Translations under genes and position numbers: made by a program | Shown: positions 28,269 through 36,818 of the stretch, piece after piece | Layout of the letters: the number at the start of each line of letters is the position of its first letter | Numbering within the stretch: position 1 is the stretch's first letter | Assembly (NCBI GenBank): GCA_934121905.1 | Contig: CAKOVI010000001.1 | Span: forward strand, 24,847 to 88,846 | Reading direction: 5' to 3' | DNA from: an uncultured Clostridia bacterium | GTDB lineage: Bacteria; Bacillota; Clostridia; TANB77; CAG-508 | DNA length: 64,000 nucleotides | The notes under the pieces: generated by a model | Told to the model about the DNA's origin: nothing | Databases searched by the model: none | The model's input: only the letters and a program-made list of their open reading frames with translations

Positions 28269-29672
28269 ATGGAAAGCAAAAAAGAAAATAATAATCAAGA
28301 AAACTTAAGAGGTTTTCAAGGAATTTTTTTAGACAAAGAAACAGAAGAAAAATTAATTAATTTACAAAAAGATGGATTGGAAAGCAATATTCAAAATATG
28401 CATATTACTTTTAAATTTGGAGATATAGAAGAATATCCTAAAGAACTTATGAATAAGAATTTCAAAATAAAAATAATTGGTTATGGCTCAGATGGAAAAA
28501 ATAGTGGTTTCTTAGTTGAAGTGCCACAAGAATTAAAAAAATATTATAAAAGTAGTAGTTTACCACATATTACAGTTTCTCTTGGAGAGGTTAATGGAGA
28601 AAAGGGAAAAGCGGTTAATACAGGAAAATTAGATTTTAAATCTTTAGAAGAACCAATTGAAATTTTTGGTAAATTAGGATATTTTATATATGGAAAAGGA
28701 AAATGTATGGACAATCAAGTAATAGAAGAGCATAACAAAGAAAATATGCCAGAAAATGTAAAAATTATACTTATACCAAAATATATGAGTGAAGAAGAAC
28801 TTGAAAAAGCAAATATAAATCCAGTTGCTACAGTAGAGGCAGAATATGGAGAAAAAATCATAAGGGGAACAGAAATAACTTTAGCACATCACATAAAAGA
28901 GTATCAAAACAATCCAGCACCATGTAATACACCAAATGTTCCAGTTGTATCAGATAACAGTACAATTGTTGTAAGTCATTTAGATTTATATACATTGGGA
29001 GGAATTGCAGCACTAATTGGAAGAAAAAAAGAAGATATTAAATTTTGGCAAGCAGCAGAGTTTATAGATTTACATGGACCACATAATTTATTTCAAGTTG
29101 AAGAAGAAACAAGAAATAAATATATAGCATATCAGGCATATCAAGCAAATCATAGAAATCCAAGATTTATGGAAGTTACTGATGTAACAGAGATTGTGTT
29201 AAAACATTTAAACATAATAGACAAAGTTATTGATGGAGATAAAACATTAATTCAAGAAGGAATTAAATGGGATAAAGAAACTAAAAAGAAAATAGAAGAT
29301 TGTTTGATTTTTGAAAATGATAATGTTAGAGTTTTCAATTCGCCAGAAGGAGTTTTTTGCTCTGCATCATATTATTCAGAAAAACAAGGAAAAGTAATCC
29401 CAAGTACTGTTACAAGAAATGGAAAATTCAAATCTGTAACTGTTGCTATGGCAGATGGTGGAAAAAAAGTATCGGCAAAAGAATTAGTACAAGAACTATG
29501 GGGGAACGAAGCAGGTGGACATCCAGGAATAGCAGGTAGTCCAAGAGGAAAAGAAATGACAGAAAAGGATATGAAACAATTAGCAAAACTTGTTAATGAT
29601 AGATATAACAAAATTAATGAAAAAGAAGAAGCAATATATTTTGAACCAGATGGCATTTCATTAGATGATTAA
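28269..29672 (+). CDS. Putative 2H-phosphoesterase-domain protein fused to a large C-terminal domain with a weak DHH/DHHA1-like pattern
   Basis: 467 aa. Two H-x-T motifs in the right context (MHITFKF; LPHITVSL). C-terminal part: IVVSHLDLYTLGG ... IDLHGPH ... AGGHPGIAGS. Confidence 0.4.
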   Translation: MESKKENNNQENLRGFQGIFLDKETEEKLINLQKDGLESNIQNMHITFKFGDIEEYPKELMNKNFKIKIIGYGSDGKNSGFLVEVPQELKKYYKSSSLPHITVSLGEVNGEKGKAVNTGKLDFKSLEEPIEIFGKLGYFIYGKGKCMDNQVIEEHNKENMPENVKIILIPKYMSEEELEKANINPVATVEAEYGEKIIRGTEITLAHHIKEYQNNPAPCNTPNVPVVSDNSTIVVSHLDLYTLGGIAALIGRKKEDIKFWQAAEFIDLHGPHNLFQVEEETRNKYIAYQAYQANHRNPRFMEVTDVTEIVLKHLNIIDKVIDGDKTLIQEGIKWDKETKKKIEDCLIFENDNVRVFNSPEGVFCSASYYSEKQGKVIPSTVTRNGKFKSVTVAMADGGKKVSAKELVQELWGNEAGGHPGIAGSPRGKEMTEKDMKQLAKLVNDRYNKINEKEEAIYFEPDGISLDD

Positions 29673-29695
29673 AATTTAAAGGAGATAAAGTTTGT

Positions 29696-30409
29696 ATGAG
29701 AATATTAAAAGCAAAAGAAATTTTTAAACAAACAGCCTTTAGTGAGAATAAAGAAAAAATGACAAAATTATATGAAGAACAGTTAAATATAAAGGCTATA
29801 AAATATTTTAGAGATAAATATAATAATCTTTTGGTATCAGCAAATGAAAATGCAAATCTTTTATATCAGCCTAGTAAAAAATATGAAATATTTACCCTAG
29901 ATACATTAGGTGGAAAAATATTTTTAACAGAAACATCAGATTTACCAGCTGGAGAAAATAAAGAGTTATATTACAATTTTAAAATTGCAAACAATATATA
30001 CCAAAAATTGATTGACATTCAAGATGCGTCATTTAATGAATATGAAGAAGTAAAAGAATTATATGAGAGAGAAATTCTAAAAAGCGAAAGCGAAATTGAA
30101 GATTTGAAGTTAAGAGACAATGAATTATTTAAAAAAGACTTAGAAGTATATGAATTAATTAGTCAAACATCATTGTATGAAAATTATCAAATATTAAATA
30201 AAGATAAGGAAACCCTTGTAAAGAAAAATGAACAATTAAATAAAACAATCTCAAAATATAATGAAAATATTAGAGATCTAAGTCGAAGATTAAAAATGTC
30301 ATTAGATAGAATAGAGCAATTGCAAAAACCTAAAACATTTTTGGAAAAATTAAAAGAATTATTTATAAAAGATGAAAAATATTTAATTGATGATAGGAGG
30401 GAAAAATAA
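29696..30409 (+). CDS. Hypothetical coiled-coil protein
   Basis: 237-aa ORF with RBS AAAGGAG. The C-terminal half is heptad-like and K/E/L-rich. Confidence 0.5.
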   Translation: MRILKAKEIFKQTAFSENKEKMTKLYEEQLNIKAIKYFRDKYNNLLVSANENANLLYQPSKKYEIFTLDTLGGKIFLTETSDLPAGENKELYYNFKIANNIYQKLIDIQDASFNEYEEVKELYEREILKSESEIEDLKLRDNELFKKDLEVYELISQTSLYENYQILNKDKETLVKKNEQLNKTISKYNENIRDLSRRLKMSLDRIEQLQKPKTFLEKLKELFIKDEKYLIDDRREK

Positions 30410-30410
30410 A

Positions 30411-34410: not shown

Positions 34411-36354
34411 ATGTTGCAAAATAATGATATAAAGGAAAAATTAAAATACAAAAATTTTGATGAAAGAGCACTAAATTACATTGTCAATGCTATAGAAGAG
34501 TTTGATTCTTTATTTGGGCAATATATAAGCAAAGAAAAAGTGGTAAATAGAGTAATAAATAATTTAGATTATTTTGAATTTGGACGAGATTTTGGACCTT
34601 CTGACGCATACCAAGAAGGAGCATTTTTGAAAGATGAAAAAAAAATACAAATATCAAAAAAATTAGATAATGATGAAGAAGTCATAAAAAGTGTAGTTTT
34701 TCATGAAATGTTTCATGTTATAACAACTGACCCAGAAAAATCAATAACAGGATTTTCAAAAACTATTATTACAGATGATTTTGAAGTAAAACAAATTGGT
34801 ACACATGGATTTACGGAAGGTTTTACTCAATATGCTACTAAAATAAGAGATGATAAATATTCATTAAAGAAAAGAGATGGTTTTACTTATCCAATATTGA
34901 CAGAACAATTTGAAAATATAGTTTTATTAATAGGTAAAAATAAATTTTTGGATATTGCTTTTAACAGACCTCAGGATTTTATTGAAGAAATTAGAGAAGA
35001 ATATGGAGATGGACTAGACTTTGAAGAGTTAGATTATTTATTTGATGCTTTTGATATTATATGGGATAACGAAATAAAAATTTTTTTACAAAATATAATT
35101 AATGATTTTTCAGATGAAAATTTTAATTCATTATATAGAGCAGAAGAATCAATTGAAATAAAATTTGCGAAAAATACTATTATAACAACATTGGAGAAAA
35201 TATTATTAGATAAACCAATTTCAACTATAGAAGAATTTAATGAAATGTATCAAACAATGAAAATATATATTAATCAATTAAGAGGCTTTGATATAAAAAT
35301 GTATGAATTATTGTATAATAAATTACAGGATTTACAAAATGGTAATGATGTAGTTAGTAAAAAAATTATAGAAAAAATTGATTCAGAGGATTTTAGAATA
35401 TTTGCAGGGCAAGAAAGTTATATTAATAGTATTAAAAAATTACCACTAAAAGAAAAACTAATAAAATTTTCAGAACCAGATACAAAAAAAGAATTATCTG
35501 ATTATGATTTTTTTGGGAGGGATAGGTATCAAATTACCCAACGTGCAAAATTAGCTAGTACAATTATTGAAACCGATTCAGAGATAGCAAATGGAGAACT
35601 ATTATATATTTTAATTAATGGATTTGCAAAAACTATATTGGAGAAAAATTGGAATTTAGATAAAATTGGTTTGGATTGTATTAGATTAGATTCATGGAGA
35701 ACTATATTTAATTTATATGAAACAAATATGGGAAAAAGAACATATTTAGGAACGTATGGATATAGCGGTAATGAAGAATATGAAGAATATACATTAAATG
35801 TTTCAGACGAAAAAAAGAAAAAAGTATTAGAGGAACATCCTGAATTTGATAATATGCTTTTACTAGAAGCACAAAATGGAGAATTTGTTGGATATGCAGG
35901 AAACGATAAATATATTGATGAATATGGTGAAACAGAAAGAGTAGAGCATTGTAAAAGCAAAGAAGAAAAAACAATAGAAAACTTAAAATCTAAATTGGAC
36001 AAATTTAGAAATTTAAAGGTAATGGAACAGGACGATATCGGAATTCCTCAGATTATACTTGATTCTGAATTGAAACAAGTAAAAGAAGAAATAGATAAAT
36101 TAAAGCAAATTGATGGAGAGAATAACACAATATTAGAAAGATTAGAACGATTATCAAGTAATACATCAATGCAAGACGTAAATGAAATTATTGAAGAAAT
36201 AACAACATCAAAATTAGGATTAGAAATATTGGATGTAGAAAAAGATTTTAGTAGATTAGACGATGTAGAAAAAATGATGAAAGAACATTTAAAAGAACAG
36301 GAGCAGGATTTAGGAAAAACAAATGAAAAAGATAATGGTGAAACACATAATTAA
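34411..36354 (+). CDS. Hypothetical protein with an HExxH metallopeptidase-like motif
   Basis: 647 aa. VVFHEMFHV, then GFTEGFTQYA about 40 aa downstream as a possible third ligand. The rest is unrecognised, with an acidic coiled-coil tail. Confidence 0.5.
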   Translation: MLQNNDIKEKLKYKNFDERALNYIVNAIEEFDSLFGQYISKEKVVNRVINNLDYFEFGRDFGPSDAYQEGAFLKDEKKIQISKKLDNDEEVIKSVVFHEMFHVITTDPEKSITGFSKTIITDDFEVKQIGTHGFTEGFTQYATKIRDDKYSLKKRDGFTYPILTEQFENIVLLIGKNKFLDIAFNRPQDFIEEIREEYGDGLDFEELDYLFDAFDIIWDNEIKIFLQNIINDFSDENFNSLYRAEESIEIKFAKNTIITTLEKILLDKPISTIEEFNEMYQTMKIYINQLRGFDIKMYELLYNKLQDLQNGNDVVSKKIIEKIDSEDFRIFAGQESYINSIKKLPLKEKLIKFSEPDTKKELSDYDFFGRDRYQITQRAKLASTIIETDSEIANGELLYILINGFAKTILEKNWNLDKIGLDCIRLDSWRTIFNLYETNMGKRTYLGTYGYSGNEEYEEYTLNVSDEKKKKVLEEHPEFDNMLLLEAQNGEFVGYAGNDKYIDEYGETERVEHCKSKEEKTIENLKSKLDKFRNLKVMEQDDIGIPQIILDSELKQVKEEIDKLKQIDGENNTILERLERLSSNTSMQDVNEIIEEITTSKLGLEILDVEKDFSRLDDVEKMMKEHLKEQEQDLGKTNEKDNGETHN

Positions 36355-36377
36355 AAAAAGAAAAGGAAGTGTGAAAA

Positions 36378-36818
36378 ATGGTAACTACTGAATATAAAAT
36401 TGCATATTCTGAAATATTAGAAATATTAAAACATATCTCCAAGAAAGAACAAGAAAAAGTTCCAAGTAATATGATTGAAATGTTTAAAGCAAATGCTAGT
36501 GAGAACAGTAATTTTGCATATAATCCTAAAAAAACTTTACAAGAACAAAATGTTTCTGAAATAGCTATATCAATAATTGCAATTTTATACAGAGACTATT
36601 GGGCTACAAAAGAACAAAAACAAAAAATATTAAATTATCAAAACAGAGAACGTGAAAAATATAAAGCGGAAAAATATGATGTAAATAATATATTTAAAAA
36701 GAAAAATGAAATTAAGCCTACAATTACAGTTGCTGAAGAATACCCTGTAGTAGTGAAAAAACAAAATTTTATACAAAGGATAATAGGTAAGATTAAGAAG
36801 TTAATTATAAATAATTAA
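36378..36818 (+). CDS. Hypothetical protein
   Basis: 146-aa ORF with RBS AAAGGAAGTG. No motif recognised. Confidence 0.5.
   Translation: MVTTEYKIAYSEILEILKHISKKEQEKVPSNMIEMFKANASENSNFAYNPKKTLQEQNVSEIAISIIAILYRDYWATKEQKQKILNYQNREREKYKAEKYDVNNIFKKKNEIKPTITVAEEYPVVVKKQNFIQRIIGKIKKLIINN

Follow-up and report, generated by a model that had tools for sequence, protein, structure and literature searches.

We analysed a 64,000-nucleotide (nt) window of contig CAKOVI010000001.1 from an uncultured Clostridia bacterium, looking at the genes that follow a LysR-type regulator gene at 28269-36818. A first-pass annotation had described this span as one block of eight co-directional genes. It holds seven open reading frames (ORFs), g1-g7, all on the + strand, between the LysR gene and a gene for an AAA_14/DUF4143 ATPase; the eighth ORF, g8, falls outside the span and is what is left of an NTPase_I-T gene. 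The product of g1 joins two phosphodiesterase-type folds, only the first three genes keep together across species, and a phosphoesterase module is what usually follows the orthologous LysR gene elsewhere. We propose that the stretch is a variable island of three separately transcribed modules downstream of a conserved LysR gene, and that it serves as a LysR-controlled locus for degrading (cyclic) oligonucleotides, with swappable cargo; we give this reading an even chance of being right.

An AlphaFold model of g1, built from 74 homologues (predicted local distance difference test, pLDDT, 88), has two domains. Residues 1-160 form a 2H phosphoesterase domain with the two-lobed 2H fold and two H-x-T/S-x motifs, H45-I-T-F and H100-I-T-V; both histidines and the second threonine are invariant in the homologue alignment. 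Its best structural matches are CNPase, CPDase and LigT, and the first-pass description of g1 as a 2H fusion holds. The 2H part had no Pfam or NCBIfam match at E <= 0.1, and its profile found no 2H protein among Protein Data Bank (PDB) sequences. Comparison of g1, g3 and g6, and of three homologue profiles, with PDB sequences returned nothing useful.

Residues ~165-450 of g1 form a DHH/DHHA1-like domain (motifs SHLDLYTLGG and AGGHPGIAGSPRG) with the two-domain DHH + DHHA1 fold. Its structural matches are of the DHH/DHHA1 type: TM1595 (9.8), NrnA (9.5), PggH (9.2) and GdpP (9.0). The domain belongs to a family of mostly standalone proteins of ~280 residues (aa), whose conserved motifs are very strong: ATVEAEYG, TLAHH, NPAPCN, SHxDLDTxGG, FCxAxYYS and AGGHxGIAGSPRG. 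The last contains the equivalent of the DHHA1 GGGH motif, with A415, G416 and G417 invariant and followed by H/R418. A conserved AHH (206-208) precedes the DxD-like motif, and D267, H272 and D305 are conserved too. SHxDLDTxGG, the consensus of ~110 homologues, is equated with DHH motif I by position and pattern only, and here the g1 of the window departs from it, reading SHLDLYTLGG (D241Y) and so losing the DxD. The g1 protein with D241Y is identical on three contigs, so that a read error is unlikely. There was no Pfam DHH or DHHA1 match (PF01368, PF02272) at E <= 0.1, and a relationship of the domain to the canonical DHH-DHHA1 protein of locus L014 was rejected at the sequence level (hhalign probability 0.1%).

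A metagenome scan with the LysR protein recovered 80 loci at 53-74% identity, forming 23 clusters at >=90% identity; 56 had usable downstream sequence. The next co-directional gene after LysR was part of a phosphoesterase module in 49 of these 56. A standalone 2H protein of 156 aa, which matches residues 1-154 of g1 at 52-57% identity, follows LysR in 18 loci, a MYG1-type exonuclease (Pfam 2e-69) in 11, and g1 itself in two. In a further 18 the gene after LysR encodes a small coiled-coil protein (family fam13), with a Csx3-like protein next in 15. The LysR-linked 2H domain, ~60% identical to g1 residues 10-170, is fused to Csx3 (Cas_csx3, 1.7e-13) in L085 (7782-8921) and L086 (4115-5263), and several lineages carry an AAA-Csx3 protein (PADLOC Csx3, 3e-48) just upstream of LysR. 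The clade with the 53% identical LysR has the order SF2 helicase, g7-like, HD_4 phosphohydrolase, a protein of 313 aa rich in K/E, g6-like zincin, LysR and 2H, after which come housekeeping genes; HD_4, g6-like, g7-like and SF2 helicase genes recur within 9 kb of LysR loci. LysR, 2H, DHH-like, Csx3, MYG1, HD, g3, g6-like and g7-like genes form a recurring guild whose content is shuffled. LysR is the most consistently linked neighbour, so the control of the downstream genes by LysR that the first-pass annotation had suggested is, as a prediction from gene order, well founded.

The seven genes do not behave as the single co-directional unit first described. Only g1-g2-g3 is syntenic across species, in the same order in L010, L011, L013, L014, L015, L017, L018, L019, L021 and L080 (g3 at 48-63% identity), and g4, g5 and g6 were never beside this triad in any other species examined (~10 contigs). 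Homologues scattered without synteny, the outcome that had been named in advance as telling against the block, are what we found for g4-g7 and not for g1-g3. The sister strain L021 (~94% nt identity; g1 88% identical as protein; same chromosomal neighbourhood) has the order Amidase_3, DUF1064, rubrerythrin, LysR, g1, g2, g3, DUF4143, GH94 and lacks g4-g7. It keeps the g3-g4 spacer and 102 nt, made up of g4's ribosome-binding region and initial 78 nt, which run straight into the tail of g8. We rejected one insertion of g4-g7 in the window as the explanation, since the g4 5' end retained and fused into g8 in L021 marks a deletion there. That deletion indicates that g4-g7 are dispensable for g1-g3.

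Within the triad, g2 is always the middle gene. In L011 and L014 a paralogue of it stands before a gene that Pfam identifies as canonical DHH-DHHA1; relatedness of g2 to fam13 was rejected by comparison of the two families. The homologues of g3 make up a small family of full-length proteins (52 clusters, 48-98% identity). The protein starts with a beta-rich domain (1-205), continues as an alpha-solenoid core (210-650) and ends in a small alpha/beta domain (660-760) with the motif NLSKWLFGVPGxRG; Pfam and fold searches gave no nuclease, pore, NADase or protease signature, and hhalign rejected a relationship between its helical repeats and those of g4 (DUF4116). There is always a phosphodiesterase gene upstream of g3, and in L016 and L084 g3 directly follows a Csx3-like gene, which ties it to a phosphodiesterase and not to g1 specifically. 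Phosphohydrolase genes stand just after g3: Metallophos in L018, Ham1 in L016 and, in the window, the NTPase_I-T remnant.

The C-terminal domain of g3 also occurs as standalone proteins of 110-125 aa, and it is the only part in common with a 243-aa protein of a Saccharibacteria metagenome-assembled genome (MAG) (L020 7516-8247; 45% identity, NLSKWLFGVPG); that protein sits near an ATPase which is TraG/VirD4-like by sequence appearance. Beside the g1-g3 cassette of L011 (1866-5445) and L013 (3594-7127) we noted a conserved trio, an AAA_5 ATPase with weak PADLOC matches to PDC-M37B and TRIP13 and two unassigned proteins (~410 and ~325 aa).

The second module opens with g4, whose DUF4116 repeats, reported in the first pass, are confirmed as eight tandem units of ~49 aa (PF13475, 3.2e-63, 209.5 bits). 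Repeats of this type also occur in jumbo phages and in PHROGs of unknown function. Scans of viral contigs (IMG/VR) gave no relatives of g4, and no g4 homologue was beside the triad or LysR at the other loci examined. In L088, L089 and L097 a g5 homologue (53% identity) is encoded behind an unrelated protein of 807 aa, ~6 kb downstream of LysR-MYG1.

In the third module, the HExxH reported for g6 is HEMFH (98-102), with E136 in GFTEGFTQ as candidate third ligand; H98, E99, H102 and E136 are invariant in 23 sequences, the signature of a zincin. The remainder of the protein (~450 residues) is long, helical and acidic. SprT-like matches, below threshold, were seen in 20 of the 23 family members (best E 3.9e-5); the window g6 scores 16.4 bits against a cut-off of 25.6 bits for SprT-like/Peptidase_M78, and it had no PDB sequence match. 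There are 27 g6 homologues. Apart from the other modules, the g6-g7 pair occurs in L012 (30% identity, in an unrelated context), downstream of the orthologous LysR in L075 and L076, and in L073 and L074. Proteins like g7 always follow a large protein of 500-690 aa whose family varies, as in L012 (608+151 aa), L017 (513+145), L073 (578+163 and 642+153), L075 (650+124), L100 (684+147) and L002 (653+147). The 513-aa partner in L017 was compared with g6 and rejected as a relative, and the g7 alignment was too divergent for profile scanning.

In L073 (12435-13238) and likewise in L074, an Apyc1-like metallo-beta-lactamase (MBL) phosphodiesterase gene (PF23023) directly follows g6-g7, and then come HTH_17, an excisionase-like helix-turn-helix (HTH) gene, and phage integrases; the HTH_17 gene and integrases are the edge of an integrated element.

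The spacing of the genes and the signals between them (Table 1) suggest three transcription units, g1-g3, g4-g5 and g6-g7. The 1-nt gap between the g2 stop and the g3 ATG and the abutting g4 stop and g5 start agree with the coordinates first given, as do all ORFs listed there. The terminator proposed after g5 also stands: the hairpin has a fold energy of -17.1 kcal/mol (z = -4.37; 0/200 shuffles equally stable) and is followed by a T-run, and it was overlooked by the consensus scan. All seven are real genes and not chance ORFs; g1, g3 and g6 have full-length homologues at 48-98% identity. Their products read as cytoplasmic: no ORF of g1-g7 has a hydrophobic N-terminus or a transmembrane-like segment, and their K+E content is 22-33%, in keeping with the earlier remarks on signal peptides and K/E richness; Pfam likewise bears out both named flanks, LysR and the DUF4143 ATPase. 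The statement that no known pathway fits is now narrower. It stands in so far as Pfam, NCBIfam, PADLOC and annotated PHROGs gave no assignment for g1, g2, g3, g5, g6 or g7. PADLOC matched g1-g7 once, at chance level (g4, E 0.015), and the only PHROG matches were to families of unknown function, for the N-terminal part of g1 and for g4, with none to PHROGs annotated as structural or replication proteins. It no longer stands in so far as the genes belong to a recurring LysR and phosphoesterase neighbourhood that includes CRISPR-ancillary Csx3 families.

Table 1. Features of the LysR locus and of the defence and mobile-DNA island, in window coordinates.
Feature	Coordinates	Strand	Basis or remark
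Phage replisome organiser and IstB-like loader	4747-6142		
Type I restriction-modification (R-M) HsdM/S/R	7105-13307		
AAA_21 and RloB	14898-16761		
QatABCD	16865-21540		
LysR-type regulator	27258-28148	+	Pfam HTH_1 PF00126 2.5e-17, LysR_substrate PF03466 2.8e-24
Promoter-like site TTTACT-17-TATAAT, in 120-nt LysR-g1 spacer	28172-28200	+	Consensus scan, 10/12; density at chance level for AT-rich DNA, suggestive only
g1, 467 aa, two-domain phosphodiesterase	28269-29672	+	
g2, 237 aa, globular N-terminal part and coiled-coil tail	29696-30409	+	
g3, 764 aa from ATG	30411-32705	+	In-frame TTG at 30387 would give 772 aa
Promoter-like site AAGACA-17-TATAAT, extended TG, in 118-nt g3-g4 spacer	32762-32790	+	
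g4, 355 aa, DUF4116 repeats and coiled-coil tail	32824-33891	+	Pfam
Segment without counterpart in L021: most of g4, all of g5, g6 and g7, 5' part of g8	32902-36962		blastn and junction alignment
g5, 111 aa, K/E-rich, translationally coupled to g4	33892-34227	+	
Intrinsic-terminator-like element, AT-rich hairpin (34225-34282) and T-run, closing the g4-g5 unit	34225-34290	+	
Promoter-like site TTGAAA-16-TATAAT before g6	34306-34333	+	Best match of the region, 11/12
g6, 647 aa, zincin-like N-terminal domain	34411-36354	+	
g7, 146 aa	36378-36818	+	
g8, 76-aa remnant of NTPase_I-T (inosine/xanthosine triphosphatase family) gene	36825-37055	+	Pfam
AAA_14/DUF4143 ATPase	37064-38353		Flank of g1-g7

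The G+C content of the window, ~25%, is typical of low-GC gut Clostridia, and related contigs are named as uncultured Clostridium or Clostridia MAGs or as Clostridium sp. CAG:921. A CBASS-type operon (antiphage signalling system based on cyclic oligonucleotides) lies at 596-2440, with a SLATT_4 effector with two transmembrane segments (6.7e-40) followed by a SMODS cyclase (1.8e-39) with an AGS_C sensor (1.6e-38). A defence and mobile-DNA island spans 4747-21540 and, besides the systems of Table 1, holds DUF7695 and ASCH genes. An Rfam scan of 25500-39600 found no riboswitch and only spurious sub-threshold miRNA matches, on both strands, at a long AT-rich palindrome (25711-25797) in the divergent DUF1064/rubrerythrin spacer. 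The sister strain differs at other places as well. It runs from rubrerythrin directly to LysR, where the window has a SUFU-family gene (PF05076, 5.7e-27; 26602-27225; indel 26474-27230), and it is missing an HTH_3-type gene (38594-39271; indel 38431-39356) with a hydrophobic C-terminal half (maximum KD19 2.6). The giant GH94/glycoamylase ORF of the window (39420-47532 region) has 2552 aa and then an overlapping 170-aa ORF (47020-47532); the L021 gene has at least 2703 aa, and the window ORF may be frameshifted or split near 47.0 kb.

The two folds of g1 and the company it keeps suggest how the locus might work. 2H domains open the 3'-5' linkages of cyclic oligonucleotides or hydrolyse 2',3'-cyclic phosphate ends, the anti-CBASS nuclease Acb1 being a 2H enzyme, and DHH/DHHA1 domains degrade cyclic di- and oligonucleotides and short linear oligonucleotides. 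The 2H head of g1 would open a ring or heal ends, and the DHH-like head would then degrade the short linear products to mononucleotides. A (cyclic) oligonucleotide would be the substrate; the most plausible candidates are immune second messengers of the cyclic oligoadenylate (cOA) or CBASS type or their linear products. LysR would set the level of expression, and g2 (a coiled coil) and g3 (a solenoid with terminal domains), as obligate partners of the phosphodiesterase, might scaffold, target or regulate it. Modules 2 and 3 are pairs of a large and a small protein from the same recurring neighbourhood, dispensable for module 1. Csx3 is a ring nuclease for cyclic tetra-adenylate (cA4), which DHH-DHHA1 enzymes degrade too (PMC8284326), and for the DHH and 2H enzymes of phages a role against nucleotide signalling has been predicted (PMC7824862).

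Several points weigh against this proposal. The substrate of g1 is proposed from superfamily membership and neighbours, and ordinary RNA ends and nanoRNAs are likewise substrates of the 2H, DHH, MYG1, HD and Csx3 families. D241Y (codon 28989-28991) is unique among ~115 homologues, including one that is 97% identical, at a residue otherwise conserved in >=90%, and the DHH-like head of the window g1 may be inactive or impaired owing to it. Within 10 kb, none of the LysR loci examined has a cyclase, cas10 or CARF/SAVED effector gene or any other cas gene, and the Pfam annotations of the retrieved flanks show no cas10, csm or cmr and no CRISPR array. The CBASS operon of the window is 26 kb from the LysR locus and was not found near other LysR loci. 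The structure search gave no informative fold match for g3. Finally, many of the 80 metagenomic LysR loci are replicates of a few lineages.

A bolder form of the proposal, which we think rather unlikely, is that in gut Clostridia LysR governs a cassette-exchange locus that erases CBASS or type III CRISPR signals under host control; its exchangeable heads would be 2H, 2H + DHH-like, 2H + Csx3, Csx3, MYG1 and HD, with g2, g3 and g6-g7 coupling degradation to a further output. The chromosomal, LysR-anchored setting, and the 2H, g3 and g6 families not being found in IMG/VR, favour the host side. The mobile spread of the DHH-like domain, the serine recombinases by the triad and the Apyc1 and integrase neighbours of g6-g7 favour an origin on mobile elements. 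Were the genes counter-defence cargo of a decayed phage, integrative and conjugative element (ICE) or plasmid, g1 would serve to destroy the CBASS or type III signals of the host in the manner of Acb1, Apyc1 and AcrIII-1, and the place behind LysR would be only an insertion hot-spot. We consider this unlikely. The g1 C-terminal family does occur on 48 contigs of IMG/VR (from no fewer than 28 distinct phage groups, jumbo phages included, with no conserved partner among its phage neighbours), on a MOBP plasmid of Paenibacillus larvae and beside a conjugative type IV secretion system (T4SS); serine recombinases adjoin the triad in L011 and L014, g6-g7 has the neighbours described for L073 and L074, and the region varies between the sister strains. 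However, the LysR-2H pair of the 53% clade has housekeeping genes on its flanks (class V aminotransferase, MraW), the triad has the same flanking genes in two strains, and the window locus shows no integrase, att-like repeat or tRNA. In addition, the 2H family, g3, g6 and g7 were not found in IMG/VR, nor g3 and g6 in plasmids.

The principal non-immune alternative, quite unlikely in our view, is RNA end-healing or oligoribonucleotide turnover, with the 2H domain as a cyclic phosphodiesterase or LigT-like enzyme, the DHH-like domain and MYG1 as nanoRNases or 3'-5' exonucleases, and HD and the SF2 helicase aiding RNA processing. The top structural matches of the 2H part, the recurrence of the helicase and HD genes and the lack of an adjacent cyclase suit it, and that MYG1 and Csx3 were originally described as RNA exonucleases (PMC8284326) counts in its favour. 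Yet RNA ligase, RtcB, kinase and Hen1 are absent from all of the loci, the locus varies and is dispensable, Csx3 and AAA-Csx3 are CRISPR-ancillary ring-nuclease families, and the spread of the DHH-like domain through phages, plasmids and ICEs fits conflict better than housekeeping. It is very unlikely that g1-g2-g3, and possibly g6-g7, are new anti-phage modules of a defence island, with g3 or the zincin as effector and the phosphodiesterase as sensor or safety switch. The block does lie between Qat, AAA_21-RloB, type I R-M and CBASS on one side and, on the other, the DUF4143 ATPase, which has a PADLOC match (2.7e-63) to the candidate defence family PDC-S01; the distribution of the block is patchy with fast gain and loss, and its large-and-small pairs resemble toxin/antitoxin-like defence pairs. 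Against this stand the absence of PADLOC matches for g1-g7 beyond chance level, the lack of any effector signature in g3 and the presence of the g1 C-terminal domain in phages themselves. That the genes are unrelated orphans, chance neighbours in a recombination hot-spot with no common theme, is highly improbable: g4-g5 have no recurrent link to other genes, and the order of g6, g7 and helicase relative to LysR differs by clade, but LysR, 2H, Csx3, MYG1, HD_4, g6-like, g7-like and g3 genes recur jointly over the 23 LysR clusters, and the fusions of the 2H domain are with the DHH-like domain in some cases and with Csx3 in others.

How an immune response by CBASS, Pycsar, Thoeris or type III CRISPR ends is decided by phosphodiesterases that erase nucleotide second messengers, and to our knowledge few such families are known (Acb1, Apyc1, AcrIII-1 and Crn1-3). 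A LysR gene ahead of phosphodiesterases hints at regulated clearance of signals on the host side, a poorly understood step. If the cassette-exchange reading were true, phages, plasmids and ICEs would carry a large and unrecognised family of signal-degrading enzymes, defined by the DHH-like domain of g1. The orphan families g3, g6 and g7 also gain a concrete context from the locus, and the genes first taken as an eight-gene block are better studied as three modules.

Every catalytic domain here belongs to a known superfamily, so no new chemistry is implied. What appears to be new is the fusion of 2H to a DHH-like domain or Csx3, the uncurated DHH-like family, the orphan partners and the LysR-anchored swapping of cassettes; none of this architecture, family, partner set or organisation was found in the curated libraries or literature searched, where no paper linked Csx3 with LigT/2H or gave DUF4116 a function. 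Unlike Acb1, LigT, CPDase and CNPase, the 2H domain of g1 has no sequence match to any Pfam or PDB 2H family; it also differs from these enzymes in its fusion to a second phosphodiesterase domain and in a subfamily that is chromosomal, linked to LysR and not found in IMG/VR. With the DHH/DHHA1 proteins NrnA, GdpP, PggH, TM1595 and the MAD nuclease, the g1 family shares the DxD-like SHxDLDTxGG and the GGH-type AGGHxGIAGSPRG. It is unlike the canonical members in lacking a Pfam match, apparently in the order of its motifs (AHH ahead of the DxD-like motif), in the D241Y of the window copy and in residing mainly on phages, plasmids and ICEs. The zincin-like g6 has the invariant HExxH and downstream Glu of SprT and ImmA-IrrE zincins, with weak SprT-like matches, but stays below curated thresholds, carries the helical acidic extension and is paired with the small g7. 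The window has no Csx3 domain and the loci examined no cas genes within 10 kb, unlike type III CRISPR ring nucleases. Csx3/Crn3 and AAA-Csx3 nonetheless take the same slot, after or flanking the orthologous LysR, Csx3 is fused to a g1-type 2H domain in L085 and L086, and the theme of cyclic oligoadenylate clearance is shared (PMC8284326). Apyc1 has no homologue in the window, and g6 is zincin-like, not MBL; the Apyc1-like gene immediately after g6-g7 in L073 and L074 places this pair in a mobile context of nucleotide-signal degradation.

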